Assembly (NCBI GenBank): GCA_046597015.1
Contig: JBKJLJ010000107.1
Location: forward strand, 1 to 29,299
Source of the DNA: Bryobacteraceae bacterium
GTDB taxonomy: Bacteria; Acidobacteriota; Terriglobia; Bryobacterales; Bryobacteraceae
Length of the DNA stretch: 29,299 nt
Direction: 5' to 3'
Positions within the stretch are counted from its first letter, which is position 1. Each line of letters begins with the position of its first letter. The notes under the pieces were generated by a model. The model was not told the DNA's origin. It was given only the letters and a program-made list of their open reading frames with translations, and did no database searches. This document shows, piece by piece, positions 3,099 through 29,299 of the stretch. Both the position numbers and the translations under genes were made by a program.

Positions 3099-3144
3099 CG
3101 TCTAGAGGTTGTATCACGGGTACGCTAAAATTGTTGATACGCGA

Positions 3145-4382: not shown

Positions 4383-5211
4383 GCAGCTTCGTCCCCTCCA
4401 CCACCTGGTTCACGTTCCGCAACCCCGCGACGATATTCGCCATCGTACCCGAAGGAAAGTCCGACCCCGGCAGAATCTTGTGCTCCACCCCGTACTCCAT
4501 CGCCGTCACCATCGCCTGCCAATAGCGCCACGGTCGATAGTGCACCGCGCTAATGTCGGTATACAAATTGGGGCACTTGCGAATCAGCACGATCAAATCC
4601 GTCTCCCACGGATGCCCCATGTGCGCAATGATCATCTTCATATCCGGGAAGTCCATCGCCAGGTCCTCCAGTTGCAAAGGCAGCCCCCATTTCAACTTCG
4701 CCGCGGAAGGAAACGTCGTCCCCTGGTGCCACATAGTCGGCAAGCCATGGTGCTGCACGCGTTTGAAAAACGGCCAGTGCTTTCGGTCCTGCGGGTCAAA
4801 GTGCTGGTACACCGGCCCCAGTTTCAGGCCCTTCAGCTTCAGCGTGTCCACGCAATAGTCCAAGTGCTCAATGCAGTCCGGCCGCGTCGGGTCCACCGAC
4901 GCCCAGCCCTCCATCCGCCCCGGATGCTGCGCGACATAGTCGGCAATCACCTCATTCGGAATATCCAGCCCGCAAGCCTTGGCCTGCAACCCAAACACCA
5001 CCACGTGCGCCATCCCCTCCGATGCCTTCAAATGAGTCTCCGGCGTCGAGTCATAAACGTGCTTATCCAGGTTTGCCGCATACGCCAACCCTCCGCTCCG
5101 CTTCAGCTTCACGAGCTTCGCAGCCAGCGCCTCCTCGGCGTACTGCTCGCTGATATGGTCCGGATACCACATTAAGTGGGTGTGGCAATCAATCATCTTT
5201 CGCTCGTTCAT
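4309..5211 (-). CDS. Amidohydrolase family protein (Amidohydro_2, TIM-barrel metalloenzyme)
   Basis: IDCHTH (HxH metal motif), GLKLGP, MWHQG, IAHMGHPW, LYTDISA, GSDFP. ATG at 5211 overlaps the upstream stop (ATGA). Confidence 0.9.
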   Translation of the reverse strand: MNERKMIDCHTHLMWYPDHISEQYAEEALAAKLVKLKRSGGLAYAANLDKHVYDSTPETHLKASEGMAHVVVFGLQAKACGLDIPNEVIADYVAQHPGRMEGWASVDPTRPDCIEHLDYCVDTLKLKGLKLGPVYQHFDPQDRKHWPFFKRVQHHGLPTMWHQGTTFPSAAKLKWGLPLQLEDLAMDFPDMKMIIAHMGHPWETDLIVLIRKCPNLYTDISAVHYRPWRYWQAMVTAMEYGVEHKILPGSDFPSGTMANIVAGLRNVNQVVEGTKLPTIPEEVQDMILYENWKAFFPDWA

Positions 5212-6329
5212 ATTTCCACCATCATAGATTTCACCGCGTCCCAATCCAACTCCACCCCCAACCCCGGCCCCGGCGGCGGCGTCAACCAACCACCCGTAAT
5301 CATCCCCGGCCCGGCAATGATGTCCCGTTCGTACCGCAACGGCCCGAACGTCTCAATCGCATACGGCAACCACGGCAGCGCCACCGCCAAGTGCGCGCAG
5401 GCCGCTGTCGCAATCCCCATCTCCGCCTGGCTGCCCAGAATGCACGGCACCCCCACCGCCGCTCCCAAACTGAAAATCTCCGCCGCCGCCCGCAATCCAC
5501 CCGCCTCGGCCACGTACACGTTCCACACGTCGGCCGCCTCCGTCCGCGCCAACTCGTAAGCGTCCCGCAACGTTTGGCAGCTCTCATCCGCCATCACCGG
5601 CAACCCCGTCTGCTGCCGCAACGCCCGCAGACCCTCCAGGTTCCGCTTCCCCAACGGTTGTTCGAACCAGGCGACCCGCGCCGCCCCTGCGAGCGTCCGC
5701 ATCGCCCGCGCCGCCTCCGCCGTACTGGGCCACGCCATGTTCGCGTCCAAACGCAAGGGCACCTCCACAGCCCTTGCTACCGCCGTCACCGCCGCTAAAT
5801 CCTCCTCCAGCCGCCGACCCACCTTCAGCTTGATCGCCTGAAACCCCGCCGCCCATCCCGCCGCCGCGTCCGCCGCCATCTCCTCCGGGGACTTTTGATA
5901 GATCCCCCACGCGAGTCCCGCCCGCTCTCGCATCCGCCCCCCTAGCAATGCCCACACCGGCACCCCGAAATGCTTCCCCGTAATGTCCAACAGCGCCATC
6001 TCAAACGCCGCCCGCAGATACGGCGCGCTCAACTCCCCGCCCATCACCCGGTCAATCTCCGCCAGCACCAGCGGCGTCGCCAAGGCGTCCATCCCTGTAA
6101 TCGCCGGAGCCAGCATCCGCTTCGCCGCATGGCACAGCGAAAAGCCAATCCGCGGAAACGTAATCGATATCTCCCCCAATCCCTCCACCCCGTCCTCGGT
6201 CAGAATCCGCACAATTCCGAACTCGGAAGCCGTCACCGGATCCGCCAGGTTCAGCCCAGACCGCACCGCCTCCTTCCGCGGCGCCCGAATCGGCATCACT
6301 TCCACCAATCGAATCCGCGTCCCGTTCAT
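5208..6329 (-). CDS. Enolase-superfamily enzyme, muconate cycloisomerase (MLE)-like subgroup
   Basis: N-terminal capping domain (TEDGVEGLGE; AAFEMALLDITGKHFGVPVWALLGG), KxK (IKLKVG), metal ligands in LDAN, FEQP and ADES, ETFGP, PGLGVELD. ATGA overlaps at both ends. Confidence 0.9.
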   Translation of the reverse strand: MNGTRIRLVEVMPIRAPRKEAVRSGLNLADPVTASEFGIVRILTEDGVEGLGEISITFPRIGFSLCHAAKRMLAPAITGMDALATPLVLAEIDRVMGGELSAPYLRAAFEMALLDITGKHFGVPVWALLGGRMRERAGLAWGIYQKSPEEMAADAAAGWAAGFQAIKLKVGRRLEEDLAAVTAVARAVEVPLRLDANMAWPSTAEAARAMRTLAGAARVAWFEQPLGKRNLEGLRALRQQTGLPVMADESCQTLRDAYELARTEAADVWNVYVAEAGGLRAAAEIFSLGAAVGVPCILGSQAEMGIATAACAHLAVALPWLPYAIETFGPLRYERDIIAGPGMITGGWLTPPPGPGLGVELDWDAVKSMMVEI

Positions 6330-7204
6330 AGGTACCTCTTCGCAATCTTCCCGGCCACCGCGCCCCCGCTGTAGTACCCCACCGAGATCTGCCCCGCATG
6401 GGTCAGCAAATCATACGCCTTCCATCGGTCCCATCCATAGTCAGCCTCCATCCAAAAAATCAGCCACGCATAGGCCTGCGCGATTCCCCGTTCCAGCGGC
6501 GTCGCCGACGATACGCAAACCAGCTCCGTCTCGTTCTCAATCCGCGGACCCGGAATCGTCCAGCCCTTTTTCACACCCACCGTAATTTCGGTCTCCGCCG
6601 GCATCTCCAGCCCCGAAGCCGATAGCTCCCCGTGGCCCATCGCCGCATGCGCATCGCCCAAATACAAAAGCGCTCCCGGCACAAACACCGGCAAATACAG
6701 CGTGCTCCCCGGAGCCACCTCCACAATGTCCATATTCCCCCCGTGCGGCCCCGCCGGGTTCGTCGTCGGCACCCCCCAATCCGGCGCCGTGCCGATACAC
6801 CCCAACATCGGTCGATAGGGAATCGTCACCGTTTCATTCCAGTGAATTCCTTCGTCGGTAATCGCGCAAACATGTGTCCCGTGCGGGCAATCCATGCCCA
6901 ACCACTCGGCCAGCATCTTCGGATCCGACGTCCGCGTGTAGCACTCCCCCCGCGTTGGCCGAATGCTGTGAATCGTCACCGCCAGCGCGTCGCCCTTCTC
7001 TGCACCGCTCACGTAGATCGGCCCCGTCGTCGGGTTCGAATACGGCATCGTAACCTTATTCCGCCGATCGGCCTCCGTCCGGATTTGCCCCGAGAAAGCG
7101 TCCTGACTCTCCACCACCAATCGTGTGCCCGGTTCCACCCGTGCCAGCGGCGTATCCAACCGATTGAACTCATAACAGAGTTTGCCTAAAGGGATTCGTT
7201 CCAT
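6326..7204 (-). CDS. Acetamidase/formamidase family protein
   Basis: ESQDAFSGQI, NPTTGPIYVSGAEKGDALAV, PMLGCIGTAP, PHGGNMD, LYLPVFVPGALLYLGDAHAAMGHGE. Confidence 0.9.
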   Translation of the reverse strand: MERIPLGKLCYEFNRLDTPLARVEPGTRLVVESQDAFSGQIRTEADRRNKVTMPYSNPTTGPIYVSGAEKGDALAVTIHSIRPTRGECYTRTSDPKMLAEWLGMDCPHGTHVCAITDEGIHWNETVTIPYRPMLGCIGTAPDWGVPTTNPAGPHGGNMDIVEVAPGSTLYLPVFVPGALLYLGDAHAAMGHGELSASGLEMPAETEITVGVKKGWTIPGPRIENETELVCVSSATPLERGIAQAYAWLIFWMEADYGWDRWKAYDLLTHAGQISVGYYSGGAVAGKIAKRYL

Positions 7205-7233
7205 GCGTCTTCATAGGATAGAATCCGTACGTA
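7205..7233. promoter_or_regulatory. 29-bp divergent promoter with overlapping -10-like hexamers
   Basis: TAGAAT (+, 7219-7224) lies 9 nt before the esterase ATG. TATCCT (-, 7220-7215) lies 10 nt before the acetamidase ATG. No SD for either gene. Confidence 0.5.
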
Positions 7234-14732: not shown

Positions 14733-15560
14733 CTAAAACTCGCTGCCGCTGGTGATGTTCTCGTTCAGGCCGTTGTCCATTGAGAAGGTCTTGTGAGCCA
14801 CCCAGGTTTTCGAGCGCGGAAAGAGGGACGCGCCATCGCCGTTCAAGTCGAGATAGACCTAGCACCGCGAGAGCGGCACCTGAAAATGTCCTTGTCGGCG
14901 GGTTTCTTGCCCGGCGGGTAATGCCCCTCGGCTTCAATAGCATGGCGCTTCTCGGACACGCCAAAAGTGATAGTACCGATGTTTGCGGGGCTGCCCGAGA
15001 CGTGTGTCATCTGCTGGGTGCCGGCATCGAACAACAACTTCGGTTTGTGGACAGCGTCTCCGTTCCAGGTAGTCTCAAACTCGATGTAGAACTTGAAGGC
15101 GGGCTGGATTAACCCGAGTCAGAGGTGGACCGTCATGGGGCCTTTGCTTTCGAGTTGGAAGGCACCGAGGAGGGTTCACAGCGCAGTGAGCTGGACGTCG
15201 AAGTTCCCTTCCAGGAGACGAACGTTTCGAGGTCTGAGTCTGAGGTGTAGAAACGTGACCCAGCCGGCGAACGTAAGAATGCCGCCGACGAGCACCGTGG
15301 CTAGGCCGGGAGCGAGACCAACGACGGTGGTCCCCGCACCGGGACCCCAAAGGGTCATCGCGGAGCCAATGCCAATTAGGTCGGCACCGATGCCGACCAT
15401 GGCGGAGTAGTCGTTGCGGGCAGCCAGGGCGTACGAGTCGTTGCTGTCGCAGGCTACATTGGCTACTGCGGAGGCGATGCCGGCCTTCAAGAACAGTTTC
15501 GCGGCCTTCTGCAAAAAAGAGGCCCCACCCGCCCGCCCCATCCAGTTCTCCCGCCACCAT
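14733..15560 (-). pseudogene. Decayed 3' part of a large gene with glycine-rich hydrophobic helices (VasX/colicin-like membrane-toxin appearance)
   Basis: Hand reconstruction gives one protein-like reading of roughly 260 codons. It is broken by frameshifts at T-runs (about 15251-15253 and 14883-14886), a compensating shift near 15215, and in-frame stops at 15178-15176, 15121-15119 and 14861-14859. It ends TAG 14735-14733. Confidence 0.6.
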
Positions 15561-15645
15561 CTTGCCCGCTGGGCCGAAGCCCTCCTCCTCAAAACTTGCG
15601 TTAACAATCTTGAAATGTGTGTCGAAGTGTTTAACGAGGTTAGAA

Positions 15646-16842
15646 ATGCACGCCACTTCCTTTGGCTACAAAGTCCTGCTCGTAGAGGACAACGCCGGCG
15701 ACTCCGAACTCATTCAGCAAATGATGCTCGAAATGGAGGGCCTCACGTTTCAAGTCCAATCGGCCCGGTCTTTGCTCGAAGCGATGCAGCACCTCGCCGC
15801 TCCGGACCGGCCTGACCTCATCCTGCTCGACCTCTTCCTCCCCGATAGTCAAGGACTCGATACCTTCGCCCGGGTCTTTGAAAAACATTCCCACATCCCC
15901 ATCATCGTTCTCACCGGGTTGCAAAGCGATACGATCGGCGTCGAAGCCGTCTCGCGTGGCGCTCAGGATTTCCTTGTGAAAATGGAACTCAGCTCCGACC
16001 AACTCGCCCGTTCCGCCCGCTTTGCCATCGCCCGGCGCCGCTATGCCGGCGCCGAAGCACCTGCGCTGTCTACCTGCCGCTCGGTCGGCTTCGTCGGCGT
16101 GAAAGGGGGCGTCGGCACAACTTCGCTGGCCTGTTGTTTCGCCTCCCGCCTCAAGCGCCAGATCGATTCCGCCGTGCTCGCCCTTGATTTGGAACTCGAA
16201 AGTGGCGCTCTTGGCTTCTTACTGCAAGCCACCTCCTCGTTCTCGCTTGCCGACGCGGTCGAAAAACTCCACCAACTCGACCAGGAATATTGGCGCCGTC
16301 TGGTCTCTCCGGGCGCTGGTGAGTTCGATGTACTCCAGTCGCCCGCTTCGGTGGGACGTCTCCGCCGTCCCACTGCCGAAGCCGCCGCCTGCGTCTTCCG
16401 TTTTGCTCGGACCCAATATCAATGGATCGTCGCCGACCTCGGCCGCTATAACGAATTTTCCGCCGGCCTCGCCATCGAGTTCGACACGCTGGTCCTGGTT
16501 ACCAGCCCCGATCTGCTCTCTCTACGGGCTACCAAGAAGGTTTACGACACTTTAGTGGATGATGGCTTTCCGCTCGACCGCATCCGCCTCGTCGAAAATC
16601 GTGCCCCCGACCGCCACCATTCTTTGATCGCCGATGTGACGGGACAGCCCGCCTTCCACACGGTCCCGGAGCTCCCTTACAGCCTCACCGATTGCTTCCT
16701 CCATGCCGCCCTCAGCCGCGATACCCACGGCGACCACGATTCCCTCATCCTCCTCACCGCAAAGCTCGCCGGCCTCCCGCTATCCAAACTCTCCTGGGTA
16801 GAGCAATTCTACGGCCTGTTTCATCGCCGAGTGGCCGCATGA
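15646..16842 (+). CDS. Receiver domain fused to a CpaE/TadZ-like (MinD/ParA-family) ATPase domain
   Basis: SD GAGGT. Intact REC (VEDN, LLDLFLP, VLTG, FLVK). Then deviant Walker A GVKGGVGTTS (16102-16122), DLELESG, WIVADLG and TSPDLLSLRATKK. Confidence 0.88.
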   Translation: MHATSFGYKVLLVEDNAGDSELIQQMMLEMEGLTFQVQSARSLLEAMQHLAAPDRPDLILLDLFLPDSQGLDTFARVFEKHSHIPIIVLTGLQSDTIGVEAVSRGAQDFLVKMELSSDQLARSARFAIARRRYAGAEAPALSTCRSVGFVGVKGGVGTTSLACCFASRLKRQIDSAVLALDLELESGALGFLLQATSSFSLADAVEKLHQLDQEYWRRLVSPGAGEFDVLQSPASVGRLRRPTAEAAACVFRFARTQYQWIVADLGRYNEFSAGLAIEFDTLVLVTSPDLLSLRATKKVYDTLVDDGFPLDRIRLVENRAPDRHHSLIADVTGQPAFHTVPELPYSLTDCFLHAALSRDTHGDHDSLILLTAKLAGLPLSKLSWVEQFYGLFHRRVAA

Positions 16843-18101
16843 CTCTCCTCGCCCCTTTTCCGGCCAAAGCCACCGGCGTGGTGTGCTTCGCGTTAAGTCT
16901 TGCCCTTTGTGGCTGGATCAAATTCGATCCCAAAGCCGCGTCCGCCATACACCTTCCCCTCGCCTTGACCATCTTGATCTTAGTCGGCTTTTACATGGCC
17001 TGTCTCGTCGCTCGCGCCAAAGGGGCCGCCGAGCATACCGTCGATAGTTTCTTCTCCGTTTCTAATTCGCTGCTCTGTGTTCTCGGCTACGATGGCAACG
17101 CCCGGCGCCTCAATCGCGCTTGGGAGAAATTGCTCGGCGTCCCACTCAATACGCTCCAGTCCCAGCCTCTCTTCACCCTCATCCATCCCGACGACAGCGC
17201 CGCCACCGGCGAAACCCTTTGCCACATCGCCTCGGGCGACCACGTTACTAGCTTTGAAAATCGCATGCGGTGCGCCGATGGCTCCTATCGCTGGCTCGCA
17301 TGGAACGCCACCGCCGTCCCCGGAGAACGCAGCTTCTTCTGTACCGTAAAAGACATTACCGAACGCAAGCAAGAACAGATTTCCGACCAGACCGCCCACC
17401 TCTGTCTCCTCCGCTCGAATGATGACCTGGAACGCTTCGCCTTCATGGCCTCTCACGACCTCCAGGAACCGCTCCGCATGGTCGCCAGCTTCGCTCAACA
17501 ACTCGAAAAACACTACAAAGGCCGATTGGACGACCGGGCCGACCGGTACATCAATTATGTCGTCGACGGCGCTCTCCGGATGCAGAATCTCATCGGCTCC
17601 TTGCTCTCTTACGCCCGCCTCGAACAAAGCACACCCGTGTTCGCCAACATCCCCACCGAAAGCAGCCTGCGGAACGCCATCCACAATCTACAATCGGCCA
17701 TTCAGGAATCGAGCGCTGACATTACCTTCGCCCCCCTTCCCGTCCTGCACGCCGATGCCTCGCTACTCACCCATCTCTTCCAAAATCTACTCGCCAACTC
17801 CATAAAGTTTCATGGTTCCCAACCACCGAAAATCCATATCTCGGCTGAACGCCAAGGCCCCGATTGGATCTTCCAGGTCGAAGACCACGGCCTCGGTGTC
17901 CCCGCCAACGAATCCGAGCGCATTTTCGGGCTCTTTCAGCGCCTTCACTCCAAGTCCGAATACCCCGGCTCCGGCATGGGCCTCGCCATCTGCCAGAAGA
18001 TCCTCGAATACCACGGTGGCCGCATCTGGACCGACCCCTCCGCCGTCTCCGGAGCCCGCTTCCTCTTTAGCCTCAAATACCAAATGGACCCCCTCCCATG
18101 A
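16839..18101 (+). CDS. Membrane-anchored PAS sensor histidine kinase (bacteriophytochrome-type HisKA/HATPase core)
   Basis: ATGA overlap at 16839. Two TM segments; PAS (IHPDD...FENRMRCADGSYRWLAW...KDITERK); H-box ASHDLQEPLR; N-box LFQNLLANSIKF; G2 GSGMGLAIC. Confidence 0.92.
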   Translation: MTLLAPFPAKATGVVCFALSLALCGWIKFDPKAASAIHLPLALTILILVGFYMACLVARAKGAAEHTVDSFFSVSNSLLCVLGYDGNARRLNRAWEKLLGVPLNTLQSQPLFTLIHPDDSAATGETLCHIASGDHVTSFENRMRCADGSYRWLAWNATAVPGERSFFCTVKDITERKQEQISDQTAHLCLLRSNDDLERFAFMASHDLQEPLRMVASFAQQLEKHYKGRLDDRADRYINYVVDGALRMQNLIGSLLSYARLEQSTPVFANIPTESSLRNAIHNLQSAIQESSADITFAPLPVLHADASLLTHLFQNLLANSIKFHGSQPPKIHISAERQGPDWIFQVEDHGLGVPANESERIFGLFQRLHSKSEYPGSGMGLAICQKILEYHGGRIWTDPSAVSGARFLFSLKYQMDPLP

Positions 18102-18571
18102 TCCACGAATTCCATCCCTCCCGGCCAGTCGAAATCTTACTGGTCGAGGACAATCCGGCTGATGTCGAACTCACCATTGAGGCCCTCGAATCCGGCCGCC
18201 TTCTCAACCACGTCTCCCTGGCCCGCGACGGCATTGAGGCCATGGCCATCCTCCGTAAACAGCCTCCCTACGCCAGTTACCCCCGTCCTGATATCATCCT
18301 CCTCGACCTCAACTTACCACGCAAAGACGGTTTCTACGTTCTTGCCGAAGTCAAATCCGATCCCGCCCTCGCCACCATACCCATCGTCGTCCTCACCACC
18401 TCCAACTCCGATCGCGACATCGTCCGCAGCTACGACCTCAGCGCCAATTGCTATGTCTGCAAACCCGTCGAACTCGACGAATTCCTTAAATTCATCCGTA
18501 CCACCCAAGAGTTTTGGTTGCAGATCGTCCGGCTTCCGCCCCCGATTCCGGGCAGCGCGAACGCCACTTAA
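18098..18571 (+). CDS. Single-domain response regulator, Rcp1-like
   Basis: ATGA overlap. EILLVEDNPADVEL, LLDLNLPRKDG, VLTTS, SYDLSANCYVCKP, FWLQIVRLP. Confidence 0.93.
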   Translation: MIHEFHPSRPVEILLVEDNPADVELTIEALESGRLLNHVSLARDGIEAMAILRKQPPYASYPRPDIILLDLNLPRKDGFYVLAEVKSDPALATIPIVVLTTSNSDRDIVRSYDLSANCYVCKPVELDEFLKFIRTTQEFWLQIVRLPPPIPGSANAT

Positions 18572-18723: not shown

Positions 18724-20037
18724 ATGAACCGCCGCGACTTTTTCCTTCTCCCCCTTGCGGCCGCCGCGTCCACCCACCGCCGTCCCAACGTCATCTTCAT
18801 CCTGGCAGACGACCTCGGTTGGGGAGAGCTAGGCTGCTACGGAAACACCTTTAACCAGACACCCCATTTGGATCGGTTAGCGGCCGAAGGCGTCCGCTTC
18901 ACCCACGCCTACGCGGCCGCCCCGGTCTGTTCGCCTACCCGCACCTCCATCATGACCGGGCAGCACCCCGCCCGCATCGGGATCACCGATTACCTGCGCG
19001 CCGACGACCCCAATCACCTGCGTCCCACCGTCCCCAGCCTTCCCAGGATGTTCAAGCAAGCGGGTTACCGCACCGGCTTGATCGGCAAGTGGCACCTGAT
19101 GGGGGACTACCAAACCCGTCGAGGCGATCCTAAGTTACATGGCTTCGAAGAGGTGATCTGCTCGGAATCGAGTTACATCGGTCCCGGTTACTATTGGCAT
19201 CCCTATAAGCATCTGGCGGGCTTGCCTGCCCGCACCCCGGGCGAGTACCTCACTGACCGTCTGAATCAAGAGGGGGTCGACTTCATCGGGCGGAACGCCA
19301 AGCAGCCATTCTTCCTCTTCCTGGCCCACTACGCGCCCCACACGACCCTCGCTGGCAAGCCGGATCTGGTGGCGAAATACAAGGCGCTGCCCGGCGCCGG
19401 CAAGACGAAAAACAATCCGGTCCTGGCCGCCATGCTCGAGTCCATCGACCAGGGCGTCGGCATGATCCTCGGCGAACTCCGCCGTCAGGGGATCGACCGC
19501 GAGACCATCGTGATCTTTAACTCTGACAACGGTGGCGAGACCAATGTCACCACCAACGCCCATCTGCGAGGCGGAAAGTCACAGCTCTATGAGGGAGGCC
19601 TCCGTGTCCCCTTGCTGGCGCGTTGGCCCGGGAAGATTCCCGCCAGCGAAGTATCTTCCGCCCCGGTAGTGAGCACCGATCATTACCCCACACTGCTCGA
19701 GTTGGCGGAGGCGAAGCCTCCCGTCGGCCACAAGCTGGACGGACTCTCCATCGCCCCGCTACTGAAGAACCCGAAGAAGACGCCGAAGGAGCGCGAAATC
19801 GTCTGGTACTACCCGTTGGAAAAGGATCACTTCCTGGGCGGCAAGAGCGCCATGGCTATCCGGCGTGGTCCCTGGAAACTGATCGAATTCCTGCAAACCG
19901 GGGAAAAGCAGTTGTTCGACCTCAAGAACGATCCGTCGGAAAAACAGGATTTATCGGCGGCCAAACCAGACCTGGTGAACCAACTATGCCGGCGCCTCGC
20001 CGTATGGCGTCAGACCACGGTCAAGGAGTCTACGTGA
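18724..20037 (+). CDS. Formylglycine-dependent sulfatase (arylsulfatase A-like), Tat-like signal
   Basis: MNRRDFF; PNVIFILADDLG; CSPTR (CxPxR); GKWHL; SDNGG; KSQLYEGGLRVP. Confidence 0.93.
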   Translation: MNRRDFFLLPLAAAASTHRRPNVIFILADDLGWGELGCYGNTFNQTPHLDRLAAEGVRFTHAYAAAPVCSPTRTSIMTGQHPARIGITDYLRADDPNHLRPTVPSLPRMFKQAGYRTGLIGKWHLMGDYQTRRGDPKLHGFEEVICSESSYIGPGYYWHPYKHLAGLPARTPGEYLTDRLNQEGVDFIGRNAKQPFFLFLAHYAPHTTLAGKPDLVAKYKALPGAGKTKNNPVLAAMLESIDQGVGMILGELRRQGIDRETIVIFNSDNGGETNVTTNAHLRGGKSQLYEGGLRVPLLARWPGKIPASEVSSAPVVSTDHYPTLLELAEAKPPVGHKLDGLSIAPLLKNPKKTPKEREIVWYYPLEKDHFLGGKSAMAIRRGPWKLIEFLQTGEKQLFDLKNDPSEKQDLSAAKPDLVNQLCRRLAVWRQTTVKEST

Positions 20038-23000
20038 ATAGAATATTGCAAATGTCGCTCGCTGTGACGGTGCTGACTGCCGTCTCCATGTTCGCCCAAG
20101 GCACCACGGCCCAAATCGTCGGCACCCTCTCCGACCCCACCGGCGCGCCGGTACCCGGTGCCCTCGTGCGCGCCACCAATATCGATACCGGGAGTGCGCG
20201 GGAAACCAGGAGTAGTGACGCGGGCGCTTACGTGCTGCCCCTCCTACAACCAGGCCGATACCGCCTCGCGATCTCGAAGGACGGTTTCCGGCCCGTGTCG
20301 CGCATCGGGATCAACCTCATGGTGGATCAAGTCGCCCGCGCCGACCAACAACTGGAACTGGGCTCCCTCAACCAGGAAATCCAAGTCTCCGCCGCCGCGC
20401 CGCTACTCGAAACGGAGACCTCCGCGATTGGCCAGGTAGTCGATAGTGCCAAGATCCAAAGCATTCCGTTAAATGGCCGTAGCTCCTTCCGCCTGGTGCA
20501 GTTGACACCCGGACTCCTCGCCTCCCCAGCCGCGAACGGCCAGTTCGGCGACATCCCGGTCAACACGAATCAGGACTCTACGTTTTCGATCAACGGCGGT
20601 CGACAATTAAGCAACGAAATCCTCATCGATGGGGTGCCCAGCACGACCGGCCAATTCAATAGCATCACCACCATTCCTTCAATCGAAGCGACGCAGGAGT
20701 TCAAGGTGCAAAGCAGCAACCTCTCTGCCGAATGGGGCCGCTTCGGTGGGGGCGTCGTGAACGTCTCCACGCGCTCCGGCACCAATCAGGTGCATGGTGC
20801 GCTGTACGAATATCTGCGCAACAACGTCTTCGATGCCAATGAGTTTTTCAATAAGACCGCCGGCCTGTCGATTCCGCCCTTCCGCTTGAATCAATTCGGC
20901 GGTGCGGTCGGGGGCCCCGTGAAGATTGGAAAACTTTACGATGGCAAGAACCGAACCTTCTTCTTCACCGACTACCAGGGCACCCGCTATCGGCGCGGGG
21001 ACACGACGCGTTTCAGCCTGCCCACCGCGGCGCAGCGCGACGGAGACTTTTCGAGAACGCTAAATCAGGCCGGATCGTTGGTCACCGTCTACGATCCCTC
21101 CAGCACCCAGCCCGATCCGACTCGCGCCGGCCAATCCATTCGGATTCCCTTTGCCGGAAACAGGCTCCCGGCCAGCCGCATCGACCCGATCGCCCGCAAG
21201 CTGATGGCGTATTACCCGGAACCGAACTCGGCCGGCGAGCCGTTCACCGCTTTAAATAACTTTGGCAAAAATGCCAGCCGCAGCGTGGACCAAAATCAGC
21301 TCAGTGGCCGCGTGGACCACACGTTCACCAGCGCCTACCGGATGTTTGGCCGATTCGCGCACAACCGGACGGTGCTCGGGCAACCGGATTCCTTCGGCAA
21401 CGTCGCCACCTCGGGGAACGGCTCGGTGGGCGTCAGCCCGTTCCGCCAAACCACCTTCGCGCTTGACCATGCCGTCAACCTGAGTCCGACCTCGATCTTC
21501 AGTCTAAAATACGGCGTCGCCCGCTGGTATCAGGAACGCAAGACCCGCAGCTATGGCTTTGACCAACGCACTCTCGGCTATCCCGATGCGCTCGTCCGCC
21601 AGTTTCAAATCCCCGTTTTTCCCGCCATTGGGCTCGATCAGTACGACGGACTCGGCGGCCAAAGCTACTTCACGAGCGGCAACGACACCCACTCCATCAT
21701 CGGCGCCTGGACCAAGATCAGGGGCAAGCAGACATTAAAGATCGGTGGCGAGATGCGCCTTCGCCGCACCAATTTCATCCTCGCCCAAGGCGGCGGCGGG
21801 GCGTTCAACTTCGATCGCGCCTTCACTCGAGGCCCGAATCCCCTGCAGTTTTACGACAGCGCCGGCAACAGCATCGCCAGTCTCCTGCTCGGCACCGCCG
21901 CGTCTGGTTCCGTGCCCATTGTCTCCGGCGTGTCGGCCCAGAACTTTTACACCGGCGGCTACGTCCAAAGCGATTTCCGTGTCACGCCTCGTTTGGCGAT
22001 CAATGCCGGTCTGCGTTATGAAACGGAGTCCCCCTTCACGGAAAGATACAACTCACTCAACTACTTTGACCGGGATCTACCGTCGCCCGTGAAGAACCCC
22101 CAGTTCCCGGCCCTCACCGGAGGGTTGGTCTTTGCGAACCCCGGCCAGCGTAATGTCTGGCAATCGGATCGGATCAACTTCGCGCCGCGTTTGGGCTTTG
22201 CCTGGTCGGCGCTGCGGAAGACCGTAGTCCGGGGCGGCGGAGGCTTTTTCTTTGCCCCGGCCGAAACCTCGAATGTCGCGACGGCGTTCGCCTCGAATGC
22301 GGGTTACGCGGCCAATACGCCCTACGTCGCCTCGGTCGACGGTGGCCTGACGCCGTTTCGCACGCTTAGCAATCCCTACCCCGATGGCTTGGTGCCGCCG
22401 GTGCGGAATTCGCTGGGCGCGGCGACGTTTCTCGGGCAAGGGTTAGCCGTCTGGGATAACCGGCAAGTGATGCCCGTCACCTACCAATGGAACTTGGATC
22501 TGCAGCGCGAACTGCCGGGACAGATCTTGGTAGACGTAGCCTACGTAGGCAGCCGCGGAGTCCACTTGGCGTTCAAGAACCGGCAAATGAATGAACTCGA
22601 TCCGCAATATCTCAGCTTGGGTCCGGCGCTCAATCAGCAAGTGCCCAATCCCTTTTTCGGCTCGATCAACGTGGGCACGTTGGCCCAACGGACGGTCACG
22701 CGGCGGCAACTGCTGCTGCCGTTCCCTCAATTCACGAATGTCAACGTCATCAACATGACGATGGCCAATAGCATCTACCATTCGCTGCAGCTCAAGGTGG
22801 ATAAGCGCTTTTCAAAGGGCATGAGCATTCTGGTGGCCTACACCCTGAGCAAGTTGATTACGGACTCAAACAATACCGTCTCGAACAACGGCGGGCCCGC
22901 CGCCAACAATACGACCAATACGCAAAACTGGTACAACCTGCGCTCGGAACGAAGTCTGTCGGAGACGGACGTACCCCGAAACCTGGTGGTTAGCTTTGTC

Positions 23001-23501
23001 GCCGAATTGCCCTTTGGGCCAGGCAAGAGATTCTTCTCCGCGAGCCGGGGCGTAGGCGCCAGATTGGCCGCCGGCTGGCAATTGAATGGCATCACGTCCT
23101 ATCGCGCGGGTTTCCCATTGAGCATTTCGGCAAATATTGCCGGCGGCGGCAATCGTCCGAACAGCACGGGCCAAAGCGCGTCGCTCAGTTCGCCCACCCT
23201 GAACAAATGGTTTGATACAACGGCGTTTCTCCAGCCGGCCTCCTTTAGCTTGGGCAACGTGGGCCGCACCCTGCCGGACACGCGCGGGCCGGCGATTTTC
23301 AACCTGGATCTCTCCTTGCTCAAGAACGTCAAGCTTACCGAGCGAGCCCAACTCCAACTGCGCTTTGAGTACTTCAACGTCACCAACACTCCCCCGTTCG
23401 GACTGCCGAACACCGCGTTGGGCAGTGGCGCCTTCGGCCGGGTGCAATCGACCCTACTCCTCCCCAGGGTGGGTCAGGTGGCGGCGAAAATTATCTTCTA
23501 A
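20034..23501 (+). CDS. TonB-dependent outer-membrane receptor with carboxypeptidase-regulatory-like N-terminal domain
   Basis: GTG at 20034 with SD AAGGAG, overlapping the sulfatase stop. Signal peptide (MFA-Q); IVGTLSDPTGAPVPGA; plug SINGGR...IDG and EFKVQSSNLSAEWGR; barrel strands (LAINAGLRYE); terminal KIIF. Confidence 0.92.
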   Translation: MNRILQMSLAVTVLTAVSMFAQGTTAQIVGTLSDPTGAPVPGALVRATNIDTGSARETRSSDAGAYVLPLLQPGRYRLAISKDGFRPVSRIGINLMVDQVARADQQLELGSLNQEIQVSAAAPLLETETSAIGQVVDSAKIQSIPLNGRSSFRLVQLTPGLLASPAANGQFGDIPVNTNQDSTFSINGGRQLSNEILIDGVPSTTGQFNSITTIPSIEATQEFKVQSSNLSAEWGRFGGGVVNVSTRSGTNQVHGALYEYLRNNVFDANEFFNKTAGLSIPPFRLNQFGGAVGGPVKIGKLYDGKNRTFFFTDYQGTRYRRGDTTRFSLPTAAQRDGDFSRTLNQAGSLVTVYDPSSTQPDPTRAGQSIRIPFAGNRLPASRIDPIARKLMAYYPEPNSAGEPFTALNNFGKNASRSVDQNQLSGRVDHTFTSAYRMFGRFAHNRTVLGQPDSFGNVATSGNGSVGVSPFRQTTFALDHAVNLSPTSIFSLKYGVARWYQERKTRSYGFDQRTLGYPDALVRQFQIPVFPAIGLDQYDGLGGQSYFTSGNDTHSIIGAWTKIRGKQTLKIGGEMRLRRTNFILAQGGGGAFNFDRAFTRGPNPLQFYDSAGNSIASLLLGTAASGSVPIVSGVSAQNFYTGGYVQSDFRVTPRLAINAGLRYETESPFTERYNSLNYFDRDLPSPVKNPQFPALTGGLVFANPGQRNVWQSDRINFAPRLGFAWSALRKTVVRGGGGFFFAPAETSNVATAFASNAGYAANTPYVASVDGGLTPFRTLSNPYPDGLVPPVRNSLGAATFLGQGLAVWDNRQVMPVTYQWNLDLQRELPGQILVDVAYVGSRGVHLAFKNRQMNELDPQYLSLGPALNQQVPNPFFGSINVGTLAQRTVTRRQLLLPFPQFTNVNVINMTMANSIYHSLQLKVDKRFSKGMSILVAYTLSKLITDSNNTVSNNGGPAANNTTNTQNWYNLRSERSLSETDVPRNLVVSFVAELPFGPGKRFFSASRGVGARLAAGWQLNGITSYRAGFPLSISANIAGGGNRPNSTGQSASLSSPTLNKWFDTTAFLQPASFSLGNVGRTLPDTRGPAIFNLDLSLLKNVKLTERAQLQLRFEYFNVTNTPPFGLPNTALGSGAFGRVQSTLLLPRVGQVAAKIIF

Positions 23502-23689
23502 TGCTGAGTTAGGAGCCATTTTCACGTCCGGGCCTTCGCAAGGAAGCATTGTCCGATGGGTTGATCACAAGGAGCAAGCCTCAATGGAGTTGGCTCGGAT
23601 AGGCCTGCACTGCTGGTGGGTGCGGCAACAGAGCGGCAATCCGGAGCTGGTTCTTTGGCGGCGGCATCCTGTTAATCTAGTTCTTGATT

Positions 23690-24787
23690 GTGAAGAAATC
23701 TTTTCTATTCTTAACTAGCGTTCTGATTGTCGCGGCGGCCGAGCCGAAAGCCAAAAACGTTGTGGTATTCCTGGGCGATGCCGGCGGCATTCCAACCCTT
23801 CATGCGGCGAGCATTCATGGGTTTGGTACTCCAGGGAAGCTCTTCATCCAGCAGATGCCCCACATAGGATTATCCGAAACGTCGCCCGTGGGAGCTTGGG
23901 TTTCGGATTCGGCCGCCGGCATGACCGCGATCGTCACGGGACACAAGACAAAGAATTCCGTAATTTCGCAGTCGGCGGATGCGGTGCCGGGCAAAGCGGA
24001 CGGCGCTGCGTTGAAGACGATTCTGGAATATGCCGAAGAGCATGGCCTGTCCACGGGCGTCATTTCCAACATGTCGATGGCGGATGCGACGCCGGCGGCT
24101 TGCTACGCCCACTCCAACCACCGCCGAAAGTTCGCCGAGATCGTGGCGCAGATTGCGAAGCCGCGGTTTGGCGACGGCGTGGACCTCGTAATCGGCGGCG
24201 GGCGGAAGGGGATTTTCGCGGCGACCGCGAGCGCGGGGTACGACTTCCGCAAGGCATTGGGGGACAAGGGTTACGCGATGTACGATCGGCCCGAGGAGAT
24301 CCCGGCGGAGGCCAAACGAGTGGTGGCTCTGTTCGATGAACGCTTTGATCCAATGCCTGTCGTGAAACGGGCGATCGAGATTTTGTCGCGGAATCCAAAA
24401 GGGTATTTCTTAATGGTGGAGTGGGACATGCACACCGACAAGCTGCGTCCCGGGCTAGACCAGGCGGTCACGATGGATAAGCTGGTGCGGCAGACTGCGG
24501 GGCAGGTAAGTAGCCGGGATACGTTGATCCTGTTCACGGCGGACCATTCCTTCGATTTGCGCGTGCGAAGCGGAAAGCCGGGCGAGCCCCTGCTGCCCGT
24601 GACGCCACCCGAGGACGAAGCCACGGCGGCCGTGCGGATCAACAACACGCATACGGCGGAAGAGGTGCTGGTGGCGGCCATGGGACCCGGCGCGGCGCGA
24701 GTGAAGGGATATATGCCGAACACCCAGATCTTCCATATTTTGATGGCAGCGTATGGCTGGAAAGAGACGGGCGCGACTAAGCAGTAA
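23690..24787 (+). CDS. Alkaline phosphatase (PhoA-fold), compact atypical variant
   Basis: Signal peptide from GTG 23690. FLGDAGG, nucleophile SDSAAG, DATPAA, FLMVE, TADH, HTAEEV. TTG 23684 is an alternative start. Confidence 0.86.
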   Translation: MKKSFLFLTSVLIVAAAEPKAKNVVVFLGDAGGIPTLHAASIHGFGTPGKLFIQQMPHIGLSETSPVGAWVSDSAAGMTAIVTGHKTKNSVISQSADAVPGKADGAALKTILEYAEEHGLSTGVISNMSMADATPAACYAHSNHRRKFAEIVAQIAKPRFGDGVDLVIGGGRKGIFAATASAGYDFRKALGDKGYAMYDRPEEIPAEAKRVVALFDERFDPMPVVKRAIEILSRNPKGYFLMVEWDMHTDKLRPGLDQAVTMDKLVRQTAGQVSSRDTLILFTADHSFDLRVRSGKPGEPLLPVTPPEDEATAAVRINNTHTAEEVLVAAMGPGAARVKGYMPNTQIFHILMAAYGWKETGATKQ

Positions 24788-24825
24788 GCGTAAGGGAAGG
24801 CGCCCACCTTGGGCAACGCAAAATC

Positions 24826-25179
24826 TCAACCGGCAACGACGTAGATCTGCGCCGTTACTTCGCCCTCTGGCAAACGGATTGGTGTGACCACACGCCGGTA
24901 TTCAGGGCCTTCAAACTCGTCGAGCCGCGCCCAGTGATCACGCAGTTCCACTGACTCCAGAACGTAAACCTCCACCGGAGAACCTAATGGATCCAAGGTC
25001 AACCCAGGAAAGCCTAGCGCGGCTCCCCAGCCGTCGTCGCTCAGCTTGCCGAGCACCGTTCCGCGCTGCCAGCGTCCCTTCAGGTCCGCCAAATGGTGGT
25101 GATTCACCCGGCCTGGCGCTAAAGTTCCGTAGACGGCCAGACGCGGAACTTCATCTTCGCTGCAATCACGCTCGGACAT
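24826..25179 (-). CDS. Gamma-glutamylcyclotransferase (AIG2-like) family protein
   Basis: LAVYGTLAPG, GFPGL, VYVL, LDEFEGPEYRR, AQIYV. SD-like GGGGGAG upstream of ATG 25179. Confidence 0.88.
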   Translation of the reverse strand: MSERDCSEDEVPRLAVYGTLAPGRVNHHHLADLKGRWQRGTVLGKLSDDGWGAALGFPGLTLDPLGSPVEVYVLESVELRDHWARLDEFEGPEYRRVVTPIRLPEGEVTAQIYVVAG

Positions 25180-25204
25180 GCTGATTCGCTCCCCCCACTC
25201 CATT

Positions 25205-25312
25205 ATGATCATCCCCGACGACGGCGAGCCTTTGACTCGATTTGCAAATGAAATCAAAACGACAATGAAAGCCGGCGGCCTCACCACCAACCTCAACCAG
25301 TCCACACGCTAG
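25205..25312 (+). other. Small ORF or degenerate short-peptide gene (…IKTTMKAGGLTTNLNQSTR)
   Basis: 35-codon ORF from ATG 25205. One added A after ATG 25248 gives the 21-aa peptide MKIKTTMKAGGLTTNLNQSTR. No SD. Confidence 0.35.
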
Positions 25313-25561
25313 TCTCTGGCCTTTATCCCTCAAGACCCTCCGTCGACTGACATCCACCCACGGACGCGTTCGCCCCTCCGCTCTATGTCGTTAACCTATT
25401 GATCGATAGGCAACTTATGGGCAAAATGGCCCCTAATTAGGACCTCGGCGACCTGCCCAAAGCGGCCTAACTCGCCACCTAGACCTCTTACCCCCAACGG
25501 CTACGGGAAACTCAGGTCCGTTTTGCAATATTCCCTTAGCTCCAAACAGATTTGCCTTAGT

Positions 25562-25593
25562 TTGACAAATTTAGCGCAGATTCTTCGCATGAT
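25562..25593 (+). promoter_or_regulatory. Candidate promoter for the DUF1800-DUF1501 operon
   Basis: TTGACA at 25562-25567 and CATGAT at 25588-25593, 5 nt before GTG 25599. The 20-bp spacing is non-canonical. Confidence 0.4.
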
Positions 25594-25598
25594 CAGGT

Positions 25599-28121
25599 GT
25601 GCGGACAACAACCCTTTCCATCATCGCTTCCCTGGTCCTGGCCCCACTGGCCCTCGCCCAGATCACAATCTACCCCGGAGCCTCCGGGATCCCCAAGGGC
25701 ACCACCCGGCAAATGTCGGCCTACGTGCCCCTCTCGCCGAACACCGTCACCTGGGCCATCAATGACACCGTCGGAGGCAGCGCCACCTACGGCATCGTTA
25801 CCTCCACGGGCAAATACACCGCCCCGGCTCTCATCCCGCCCGACAACCAGATCACGATCAAGGTCACGAGCACCGCCGACGCTACCAAGTTCAGCACCGC
25901 CCAAATCTCCATCACCCAGCCCCTCGTTTACATCTGGGGCTCCTACCCGAACACCGTCACACCCGGAGCCATCTCGCTCAGCATCAATGGTGCCGGCTTC
26001 GTTCCTGGCGCGGTCATCACCATCAACGATCAACCCCTGTCCACCGCCTACCTCTCTCCCACCGCGCTGAAGGTCACCGGCAACGTCCCTGCCTCCATGC
26101 TCGGGGTCGCCAAACTCAAGGCGATCAATCCCGGCCCCGGCTCCACCATCAGTGACCCCGTCAATCTAACCGTCAAGTCCTCCGCTGTCAGCCTTTCGAT
26201 CAGCCCCTCCTCCATCAACTTGCCCATCAACGCCAGCCAAGCCTTTACCGCCACCGTCACCGGCAGCGCTAACACGGCCGTCACCTGGTCAACCAACGTC
26301 GGAACCATCTCCGCCGCCGGTCTCTACACCGCCCCTGCCGCTCTGCCCAATCCGCCCACCGCCACCGTAACGGCCACGAGCGTCGCCGATCCCCTCGTCG
26401 CCGTCTCGGCCGTCGTCACGCTCAATCAGCCCGCGGTCACCGTCACCGTCTCCCCCGCCTCGGCCCAACTCTTTCTCAACGGGACCCAGCAGCTTACGGC
26501 CACCGTCGTCGGCAATGCCAATACCGCCGTAACCTGGTCCGCCTCCGCCGGCACCATCACCCCGGCCGGCCTCTATACGGCCCCTGGCGCCATGCCCAAT
26601 CCGGCCAGCGCAACCATCACGGCCGCAAGCGTCGCCGCCCCCGCTGCCCTCGGCAAGGCGTTCATCACCATCAAGCTCGCCCCCCCGGCGATGCCGAACC
26701 TCTCGCACGCCCGCTTCCTCGACCAAGCCGCCTTCGGACCCACCTCCGCCGAACTCCAAAACCTCGGCCAAATGGGCATCGACGCCTGGCTCGCTAACCA
26801 GTTCAACCTTCCCGCCAGCCCCATCGCCATCCCCGCCACCAACAACCTGGCGCAATCGCAGTACCTCAACCGCATCGTCAACGCTCCTGACCAACTGCGC
26901 CAGCGAGTCATCGCCGCCCTGAACAAAATCATCGTCGTCTCTGCTCAGAAGAACCCCTACTCGGAAGAAGTCGTCCCCTACCTGCAGATCCTCAGCAAAC
27001 ACGCTTTTGGCAGCTATCGCCAACTTCTGTCCGACATCACCCTGAGCCCCCAAATGGGTAAGTATCTCGACCTGGCCAACTCGAAGCCCCCGGCCGCCAA
27101 CGAGAACTATCCCCGCGAACTGATGCAGCTGTTCTCCACCGGGCTCGTCCTGCTGAACTCCGATGGCACCCCCCAGCTCGACGCCCAGAACAACACCATT
27201 CCGACTTACAACCAAACGGTGGTCGCCCAAACCGCGTTAGCCCTCACCGGCTGGACCTATCCCACCGCCCCCGGCGGAACCCCCAACGTCTCCAACTGGG
27301 AAAATTTCAGCGCCCCGGCCATGGAAGCCCGCGAACAGTTCCACAACAAGTCCGCCAAAACCATCATCGGCGGCTGCCCCATCCCCGCCGGACTCACGGT
27401 CGCCGTCGAAACCAACGCCGTCCTCGATTGCGTCTTCAACCATCCCAACACCGCGCCCTTCATCGTCACCCGCCTCATCCGCGACCTCGTCACGAGCAAC
27501 CCCTCCCCGGCCTATGTCCAGCGCGTCGTCGACGTCTGGAATACAAACGGACCAGCCGGTAAGGGCGATCTGAAGGCCGTCGTCACGGCGATCTTGAAGG
27601 ACGCTGAAGCCCGTCAGGATCAGGCTTCGGTCAACCAGGGCCGCCTGAAGGATCCCGTCTATCACATCGCCGCGTTCCTCCGCGCCATGAACGGCAACAT
27701 CACCCCGGATAACCTTCGCGGCTGGAACTTCTTCCAACTCGGCCAAGCTCCGCTGGCCCCCGCCTCCGTCTTCGGTGCCTACTCGCTCACCTACCGGATT
27801 CGGGGCGGTGCCCTCGCCGGTCCCGAGTTCCAAATCTATACCCCGACCGAGTCCATGCTCCGTGGCAACTTCATCCACGAGATGCTCACGAACCCGAACC
27901 AGTCGGATCTCACCATTAACTTGGGCCCCTTCCTGGCGCTCGCTGCCGACAAGAGCGCCGTCATCGAACAGGTCAATGCCACGCTCCTCTACGGACGCAT
28001 GCCGCAGTCTCTCAAGAACAGCCTCGCCACCGCCATGGCCGCTGCCTATGACAACAATCAGGCGGTCATCACCGCCCTCTACCTCACGGCTCTCAGCGGT
28101 TACTACACCGTCCAATACTAA
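25599..28121 (+). CDS. Exported DUF1800 family protein with four N-terminal Ig-like/IPT domains
   Basis: Signal peptide (ALA-Q); Thr/Ala/Val-rich beta-sandwich repeats (VTW...G.YTAP). DUF1800 motifs ARFLDQAAFGPT, DQLRQRV, SPQMGKYLD, NENYPRELMQLFSTG, HPNTAPFIVTRLIRDLVTSNPSPAYV. Confidence 0.9.
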   Translation: MRTTTLSIIASLVLAPLALAQITIYPGASGIPKGTTRQMSAYVPLSPNTVTWAINDTVGGSATYGIVTSTGKYTAPALIPPDNQITIKVTSTADATKFSTAQISITQPLVYIWGSYPNTVTPGAISLSINGAGFVPGAVITINDQPLSTAYLSPTALKVTGNVPASMLGVAKLKAINPGPGSTISDPVNLTVKSSAVSLSISPSSINLPINASQAFTATVTGSANTAVTWSTNVGTISAAGLYTAPAALPNPPTATVTATSVADPLVAVSAVVTLNQPAVTVTVSPASAQLFLNGTQQLTATVVGNANTAVTWSASAGTITPAGLYTAPGAMPNPASATITAASVAAPAALGKAFITIKLAPPAMPNLSHARFLDQAAFGPTSAELQNLGQMGIDAWLANQFNLPASPIAIPATNNLAQSQYLNRIVNAPDQLRQRVIAALNKIIVVSAQKNPYSEEVVPYLQILSKHAFGSYRQLLSDITLSPQMGKYLDLANSKPPAANENYPRELMQLFSTGLVLLNSDGTPQLDAQNNTIPTYNQTVVAQTALALTGWTYPTAPGGTPNVSNWENFSAPAMEAREQFHNKSAKTIIGGCPIPAGLTVAVETNAVLDCVFNHPNTAPFIVTRLIRDLVTSNPSPAYVQRVVDVWNTNGPAGKGDLKAVVTAILKDAEARQDQASVNQGRLKDPVYHIAAFLRAMNGNITPDNLRGWNFFQLGQAPLAPASVFGAYSLTYRIRGGALAGPEFQIYTPTESMLRGNFIHEMLTNPNQSDLTINLGPFLALAADKSAVIEQVNATLLYGRMPQSLKNSLATAMAAAYDNNQAVITALYLTALSGYYTVQY
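26187..26672 (+). repeat. Intragenic tandem duplication of two Ig-like domains
   Basis: About aa 197-275 (ATVTGSANTAVTWSTNVGTISAAGLYTAPAALPNP) and aa 280-358 (ATVVGNANTAVTWSASAGTITPAGLYTAPGAMPNP). Confidence 0.8.
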
Positions 28122-28131
28122 GGAACTCACC

Positions 28132-29299
28132 ATGACGAACTCCAACTCTCTCTCCCGTCGCTCGCTCCTCCGCCTCGCCACCATGGCCGGCGCCGCCAGC
28201 TTTGCCCAGCGGAACGCCTTGGCCCAAGCTGCGGACTATAAAGCCCTCGTGTGCATCTTCTTCTCCGGCGGCAACGATGGTCACAATATGGTGATCCCCC
28301 AGACCGCCAGCCAGTACAACCTGTACAAGGCCAACCGCGGCGCGCTCTCGGTGCCGGACAACAACGCCAAGCTGCTTCCCATTCAAACCAAAAATGGCAC
28401 GCCCTACGCCCTCAACGATGGCCTCTCGTTCATCCATGCGCTCTGGGGGCAACAGAAACTCGCCGTCGTCGCCAACGTCGGCAACATCGTGCAGCCCACC
28501 ACCCGCGCCCAATTCCTCAACTCCACGGTGAACCTGCCGACCAATCTGTTCTCCCATCCGGATCAATACGTCCAGATGCAAACCGCCACCGGCGGTACGA
28601 GCAGCGGCACCGGTTGGGCCGGCCGCTCCGTCGATTCCCTCAACAGCCTCAACGGGGCGGCGACCTTTCCAGCGGCCATCTCCATGTCCGGCCAACAGAT
28701 CTTCTGCGTGGGCAATATCGTCCAATCCGCCAGCCTCATCCCCGGCTACGACATGGTCCCGGCGGGCATGAATCTCTGGCCCGCCTCTGCCGCCACCGCT
28801 CGCCAAACGGCGCTCCAGCAGATCCTAACCATGGACAGCGGCCTAGCCGTCGTCCAGGCCGCCAACAAGGTCCGGCAGGACGGACTCGACCTGTCCGTCA
28901 TGCTGAAAGGCCTGAACGCCGGCAGCCCGTTTGTCACAAGCTTCCCCGGCACCTCGATCGGTCAACAGTTGAAGCAGGTCGCCCAGATCATCAAGCTCCG
29001 CGGCTCCACCGGCATGCGTCGTCAAGTCTTCTTCTGTTCCGTCGGCGGCTTCGATACCCATGGCGGCCAAGCTTGGCAACAGTGGGACCTGTTCAAACAG
29101 ATCTCGGATGCCATGAACGCCTTCTATCTCTCCACCCAGGAACTCGGCGTCGCTAACGACGTCACGACGTTCACCGAATCCGAGTTCGGCCGCTCGCTGC
29201 AACCCAGCGGCTCCGGCTCCGATCACGGTTGGGGCAGCCACTTCCTCGTCCTGGGCGGTGCCGTGCAGGGGGGCGACCTCTATGGACAGTTCCCCGATC
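28132..29299 (+). CDS. DUF1501 family protein with Tat signal, 3' end runs off the window
   Basis: Not in the ORF track; translated by hand from ATG 28132 (SD AAGGA): MTNSNSLSRRSLLRLATMAG..., YKALVCIFFSGGNDGHNMVIP, LFSHPDQ, GWAGR, GGFDTH, SEFGRSL, GSDHGWG, GGAVQGG. Confidence 0.92.
   Translation, partial: MTNSNSLSRRSLLRLATMAGAASFAQRNALAQAADYKALVCIFFSGGNDGHNMVIPQTASQYNLYKANRGALSVPDNNAKLLPIQTKNGTPYALNDGLSFIHALWGQQKLAVVANVGNIVQPTTRAQFLNSTVNLPTNLFSHPDQYVQMQTATGGTSSGTGWAGRSVDSLNSLNGAATFPAAISMSGQQIFCVGNIVQSASLIPGYDMVPAGMNLWPASAATARQTALQQILTMDSGLAVVQAANKVRQDGLDLSVMLKGLNAGSPFVTSFPGTSIGQQLKQVAQIIKLRGSTGMRRQVFFCSVGGFDTHGGQAWQQWDLFKQISDAMNAFYLSTQELGVANDVTTFTESEFGRSLQPSGSGSDHGWGSHFLVLGGAVQGGDLYGQFPD

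Follow-up and report, generated by a model that had tools for sequence, protein, structure and literature searches.

A three-gene operon in a 29,299-nucleotide stretch of Bryobacteraceae DNA (the window) encodes a response regulator with a TadZ/CpaE-type ATPase domain as its output, together with a PAS histidine kinase and a small Rcp1-like regulator. The window is an entire contig (C636) of a metagenome-assembled genome (MAG) of 6.55 Mb in 1093 contigs that is 89.5% complete. All three genes are open frames on the plus strand: gene 1 (15646-16842, 398 amino acids) for the receiver-ATPase protein, gene 2 (16839-18101, 420 amino acids) for the PAS histidine kinase, and gene 3 (18098-18571, 157 amino acids) for an Rcp1/RcpA-like single-domain response regulator. 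As an earlier note on this DNA had pointed out, they are joined by ATGA overlaps, which lie exactly at 16839-16842 and 18098-18101. ParA/MinD-type ATPases position pili, flagella, division sites and DNA, and their normal switch is partner-triggered ATP hydrolysis; in TadZ/CpaE proteins the P-loop is crippled and the receiver dead. Judged from sequence and predicted structure, the three genes probably form one two-component module in which phosphorylation of the receiver switches the TadZ-type domain of gene 1. What the sequences show is the domain make-up of the proteins, their intact catalytic residues, their family placement and a conserved genetic linkage to one type of kinase.

The gene 1 protein consists of a receiver (residues ~9-135), a ParA/MinD-fold ATPase domain of the TadZ/CpaE type (~143-372) and a C-terminal tail, as delimited by Pfam, an AlphaFold2 model, structural matches and a phylogenetic tree. 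Pfam recognizes Response_reg at residues 10-114 (E 3e-17), and the canonical receiver described in the earlier note is intact: the acidic pair E14/D15 (codons 15685-15690), the predicted phospho-acceptor D62 (15829-15831), T90 (15913-15915) and K112 (15979-15981) are all present, unlike in TadZ/CpaE proteins, whose receivers are atypical. An alignment with 30 relatives has no exception at D15, D62 and K112 and hardly any at E14, and the position of T90 is occupied by threonine or serine among the relatives tabulated. The ATPase motifs named in the same note were also found, namely the deviant Walker A KGGVGTT at residues 153-159 (16102-16122), the switch I region DLELESG at 181-187 (16186-16206) and PDLLSLR at 288-294. 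The Walker A motif keeps the signature lysine K153 and, as in TadZ/CpaE proteins, lacks the P-loop lysine, here replaced by T158; the consensus in TadZ is K/RGGXGXS/T (bioRxiv 10.64898/2026.07.08.737194). MinD, FlhG (FleN) and ParA resemble gene 1 in their ParA/MinD fold, in the signature lysine and in a candidate membrane-targeting helix; unlike them, gene 1 lacks the second lysine of KGGxGK[ST] and has an N-terminal receiver. The ParA and Mrp proteins of the source genome itself carry KGGVGKT or KGGCGKT. The P-loop glycines, D181 and two further nucleotide-site residues, D264 (16435-16437) and N318 (16597-16599), are invariant among the 30 relatives, so the nucleotide site is under selection. 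The signature lysine has been lost in several sublineages, which fits ATP binding without hydrolysis.

The AlphaFold2 model of gene 1 has a predicted local distance difference test (pLDDT) score of 87. Its best structural match is a ParA-family ATPase of Chlorobium tepidum (3ea0; template modeling (TM) score by target 0.85), which is also the best sequence match of the ATPase domain (E 2e-17) but has no receiver. TadZ of Eubacterium rectale, a two-domain protein (3fkq, with 384 columns aligned), comes next, followed by MinD and FlhG; TM scores by target for MinD/FlhG/ParA proteins are 0.71-0.81. A comparison with Swiss-Prot models put the CpaE-like Rv3660c (Ssd) of Mycobacterium tuberculosis first, aligned over both domains (residues 12-378), and TadZ and Rv3660c are the only structural matches to cover two domains. 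Rv3660c has a reported role in septum placement. The best NCBIfam match of gene 1 is the CpaE_hom_Actino/Ssd model, at a score well below its cut-off.

To which family of ParA/MinD-type proteins does the ATPase domain belong? An exhaustive search with this domain returned 4383 representative proteins at E <= 1e-3, of which 689 remain at E <= 1e-10, and the best 150 are of two kinds, those with canonical EDD[ST]K receivers and the Walker A KGGVG[TA]T, and those with degenerate receivers and the Walker A KGGCGAT. In a careful IQ-TREE phylogeny of 77 ATPase domains, labeled by genomic context, the ParA-partition and Mrp/ApbC proteins of the source genome are split from the ingroup at 99/92. A subclade of five members (100/100), gene 1 among them, is nested in a 34-row clade (94/85) that contains 21 kinase-linked proteins with canonical receivers, 9 orphans with canonical receivers and 4 orphans whose active site deviates at one or two positions. 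The sister group of this clade includes six verified Tad-locus CpaE proteins from Acidobacteriota (joint clade 97/97). Because gene 1 groups next to Tad-locus CpaE and apart from ParA and Mrp, its ATPase domain is of the CpaE type, as the earlier note had supposed, and does not cluster with ParA/MinD/CobQ proteins. A separate second clade (100/99) comprises further kinase-linked proteins with a receiver fused to a CpaE-type ATPase domain (REC-CpaE), from several phyla.

The receiver has other affinities. It shares 45-52% identity with receivers that have HisKA-HATPase, GGDEF, PP2C and STAS outputs, and no similarity between it and the Tad-copy pseudo-receivers could be detected. That the LLDLxLPDSQG-type receiver is known with other outputs, as the earlier note maintained, thus holds; receiver-controlled histidine kinases (e.g. 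LvrB) and proteins with other such outputs have a similar receiver, and the output in gene 1 is a TadZ-type ATPase domain. As for the further suggestion that the usual output was swapped for a positioning ATPase, these affinities fit a domain exchange in either direction. A phosphorylatable receiver on TadZ is not unique to the module: that idea was rejected when a Chloroflexia Tad-locus CpaE (L107, 2957-4243), adjoining CpaF and with the Walker A KGGVGRTT, was found to have the canonical residues DD..D..S..K.

The source genome contains two complete Tad loci, each with its own pseudo-receiver CpaE. The one on contig C901 has secretin, CpaE-like, CpaF, TadB and TadC genes, and the one on contig C809 has two TadE genes as well as CpaE-like, CpaF, TadB and TadC genes; the Walker A of the C809 CpaE, KGGVGTT, is the identical string to that of gene 1. 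A third CpaE-like gene, on contig C603 (L125, 3324-6655), has a degenerate receiver and the Walker A KPGVGAS, and its neighbors encode a 549-amino-acid TPR protein and a 649-amino-acid protein without a Pfam match; no other Tad gene occurs within this 17-kb contig. The receivers of all three paralogues lack the acidic pair and the lysine, so gene 1 is an extra copy and the sole phosphorylatable one in the genome. It stands apart from Tad genes, none being present on contig C636, in accordance with the earlier note, and all T2SSE and T2SSF matches of the genome are on other contigs.

Many relatives of gene 1 keep company with kinases. Among all CpaE-like genes of the loci examined, 34 have EDD[ST]K receivers, and these are spread over 31 non-redundant loci. 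A histidine kinase lies within 3 kb in 21 of the 31 loci versus ~5% expected by chance, an expectation derived from the density of probe-detectable kinases in the source genome (6.4 per Mb). An H-box FA[YF][VM]ASHDLQEPLRMV, or a close variant, is common to 14 of the 21 linked kinases. Neither CpaF nor a secretin was found within 3 kb in any of the 31 loci, whereas the CpaE-like genes with degenerate receivers mostly adjoin CpaF in the loci examined; likewise, TadB and TadC genes never stand beside REC-CpaE there, unlike TadZ/CpaE genes of Tad (Flp) loci. In four metagenomic relatives of gene 1 (49-52% identity) an orthologous PAS kinase (50-56% identity) abuts downstream in all four, a small receiver gene then follows wherever the contig is long enough, and the flanks of these subclade loci differ from those of the window. 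Across the loci the gene order is not fixed, with at least four arrangements (REC-CpaE/kinase/REC, kinase/REC/REC-CpaE, REC/kinase/REC-CpaE, kinase/REC-CpaE, and divergent), and one locus consists of just a sensor-less kinase and REC-CpaE. The domain-architecture and synteny comparison that the earlier note had called for thus reveals a linkage conserved across many loci and gene orders.

The kinase and the small regulator are of a familiar kind. Gene 2 has two hydrophobic N-terminal segments predicted from sequence (residues ~9-29 and 37-59), a PAS domain (73-178, Pfam PAS_3), a HisKA domain with H206 in the motif ASHDLQEPLR (codon 17454-17456) and a HATPase_c domain (306-414) with N, G1, F and G2 boxes. 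The nearest solved structures to its catalytic core are bacteriophytochrome kinases (E 2e-34). Gene 3 has the receiver residues D70, the phospho-acceptor aspartate (18305-18307), and K122, and its nearest solved structures are RcpA (E 4e-41) and Rcp1 (E 6e-39). A phytochrome-type core in gene 2 beside an Rcp1-like gene 3 agrees with the pairing proposed in the earlier note. Compared with Cph1-Rcp1 and bacteriophytochrome pairs, clear differences are seen: gene 2 has a single PAS domain after two membrane segments in place of the PAS-GAF-PHY photosensory module (Pfam gave no GAF or PHY match, the only matches at 73-178 being of the PAS family), and the operon adds a second receiver protein, with an ATPase output. 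Of the six kinases with SHDL[QRK][EA]PLR in the source genome, four are followed at once or almost at once by the start of a small receiver gene, and for a fifth the nearest is ~360 bp downstream. No receiver match of the source genome to gene 1 has a higher identity than the receiver of gene 3 (42%), which fits a shared kinase.

How might the module work? Phosphotransfer, dimerization, membrane binding and any effect on localization are steps that we infer. The membrane-anchored kinase encoded by gene 2 would autophosphorylate on H206, and the phosphoryl group would pass to D70 of gene 3, to D62 of gene 1, or to both. In TadZ, ATP binding is reported to serve dimerization. Since gene 1 keeps the residues of the ATP site but, like TadZ, lacks the catalytic P-loop lysine, its ATPase domain probably binds ATP for dimerization and not for a hydrolysis cycle. 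Phosphorylation of D62 would then gate ATP-dependent dimerization, association with the membrane through the C-terminal helix, and binding of a partner, which would be encoded outside the locus. The candidate membrane-targeting sequence is the basic helix SWVEQFYGLFHRR (16792-16830), within a helix predicted at residues 379-397; basic and hydrophobic tails recur in relatives of gene 1 (GLRRFFSK, GIRGLLRKV, GLFGFLKRGG), and CpaE, to which gene 1 may be likened in this candidate amphipathic tail, is reported to bind the inner membrane by a C-terminal amphipathic helix (bioRxiv 10.1101/2025.11.05.686773).

Several observations weigh against this proposal. Pfam recognizes the ATPase domain only weakly (ParA-type BcsQ, residues 146-290, E 2e-4), so nucleotide binding could be impaired, and gene 1, like its four closest relatives, has glutamate for the second aspartate of the D-x-D in switch I. 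The C-terminal helix does not stand out in amphipathicity, ranking at the 78th percentile within the protein. How the two domains are oriented to each other is not modeled with confidence by AlphaFold2, the linker at residues 137-141 having low pLDDT. About a third of the related genes, those in 10 of the 31 loci, have no kinase nearby, and the sequencing runs that contain the stretch are of soil and sediment DNA only, with no RNA run among them.

The reading favored in the earlier note is that gene 1 acts in trans on the Tad machinery, binding CpaF or pairing with a Tad-locus CpaE, so that the kinase would decide where or when Flp/Tad pili form. The position of its clade beside the Tad-locus CpaE proteins, the TadZ-type Walker A and C-terminal helix, and the two full Tad loci of the source genome speak for this, but we regard it as rather unlikely. 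CpaF and secretin genes are missing within 3 kb in all 31 loci described above, and each Tad locus examined, in the source genome and in five others that carry REC-CpaE, already has its own adjacent CpaE. Of 121 genomes surveyed in the order, only ~7-10 have full-length canonical matches, and none was found in three genomes of the same genus, although these do have CpaE-like matches; such patchy occurrence among relatives marks the module as accessory. CpaF is present in five of five other tested genomes with REC-CpaE, a co-occurrence that tells little, since nearly all members of these groups have Tad loci. A complex prediction for gene 1 with the CpaF of contig C901 scored 0.01 and was weighed neither way. 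Nor does any other cargo emerge from gene neighborhoods, as inspection of the neighbors of orphan members yielded no common partner. Of the orphans inspected, a Bryobacteraceae copy (L029) is flanked by sugar oxidoreductases, and a Chloroflexia REC-CpaE (L067, 5992-10141) is followed on the same strand by the DNA-uptake genes ComM (Mg-chelatase-like) and DprA.

Could gene 1 instead act on the kinase itself? As a phosphorylation- and ATP-dependent dimerization module it might bind and tune the adjacent kinase by feedback, as a scaffold or as a phosphate sink, leaving the Rcp1-like protein as the real output. Genes 1 and 2 are tightly coupled in translation, both proteins are predicted to be at the membrane, and natural REC-CpaE-HisKA-HATPase fusions of 684-688 amino acids (P0011, P0012 and P0129) put the CpaE-like domain between receiver and HisKA-HATPase, in the position of a sensor or transducer. 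In the tree, however, these fusions and gene 1 fall on separate branches, and the loci without a nearby kinase, together with relatives that have glutamate for the phospho-acceptor aspartate and again no kinase, point to a function for which the kinase is not required as a target, which makes this role improbable. Least credible of all, and very hard to sustain, is the view that gene 1 is a decaying duplicate of a Tad CpaE that lies beside a kinase by chance and whose ATPase domain is losing function. The weak Pfam score, the lost P-loop lysine and the patchy distribution might be read in this way, but the frames are open, the motifs are conserved at 30-52% identity across dozens of lineages, a kinase partner co-evolves with the gene, and working TadZ/CpaE proteins lack the P-loop lysine too, as a trait of the family.

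The phosphorylation-switched module outlined above can be set in a broader frame. It is conceivable, though we would put it forward only tentatively, that these proteins are a distinct class of response regulator in which a positioning protein of the ParA/MinD type is switched by aspartyl phosphorylation instead of a cycle of ATP hydrolysis, and through which a sensor kinase could directly set the placement or assembly of a membrane-associated machine, whether Tad pili in trans or other cargo. No description of a kinase-linked REC-CpaE module was found in the literature searched, which did not cover the older response-regulator censuses, and a 2025 review of pseudo-receivers makes no mention of CpaE, TadZ, MinD or ParA outputs. 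Automatic annotation calls REC-CpaE proteins only 'response regulator' or 'CpaE family'. The family is common in soil Acidobacteriota and Chloroflexota, with at least 34 such genes in the loci examined in addition to the second kinase-linked clade, and ESM Atlas clusters with this architecture have 432, 97 and 96 members. Many orphan REC-CpaE genes of Chloroflexota have another type of receiver; these matches, with ~30% identity and DDD[TS]K receivers, were not counted as members of the gene 1 family. By pairing a TadZ-type ATPase domain with a live receiver and a dedicated kinase, the family offers a tractable route to how receiver state controls a TadZ-type domain and, by extension, may reveal the former role of the pseudo-receiver in true TadZ.

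Variation within the family is considerable. In a sublineage of the gene 1 clade (P0211, P0240 and P0209) glutamate takes the place of the phospho-acceptor aspartate, e.g. in IVSELNLPDS, and the acidic pair is partly lost. Both such loci seen (L036, 5752-7242, and L038, 5938-7257) have no kinase within 3 kb. To judge from their sequences these proteins may be constitutively 'on' versions, and the absence of a nearby kinase at both loci is a hint that the active conformation is the phosphorylated one. The locus of the fusion protein P0012 (L016, 2398-4452) has a separate REC-CpaE gene after the fusion, and a divergent REC-PAS-kinase gene with a small receiver gene before it. Among Bryobacteraceae MAGs, the whole kinase/small receiver/REC-CpaE cassette is tandemly duplicated in L028 (~3-2534 and 2488-7221), and in L023 and L115 two tandem REC-CpaE genes face a divergent kinase and receiver. 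In a recurring pair, the gene right after a canonical REC-CpaE of the gene 1 clade encodes a CpaE-like protein with a degenerate receiver from the second, distant clade (L031, 5965-7206 and 7167-8375, with the same pair in L116; L113, 7094-8371 and 5868-7328; L044, 5674-7212 and 7074-8441), and the two may form a heterodimer. CpaF homologues vary as well, one CpaF-like gene having an N-terminal receiver (L073, 8466-10388) and others being long, with open frames of 674-702 amino acids (L110 and L111).

A scan for promoters and terminators around the operon gave no signal above chance. The flanking genes in the window have catabolic or envelope functions. Just 5' of the operon (14733-15600) are short open reading frames without a Pfam match (15075-15656, minus strand), and on its 3' side (18724-29298) are genes for a sulfatase, a large protein of 1292 amino acids with CarboxypepD_reg and an outer-membrane beta-barrel, an alkaline phosphatase and a DUF1800/DUF1501 pair. 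This 3' set shows no evident link to the operon and is typical of acidobacterial nutrient scavenging.

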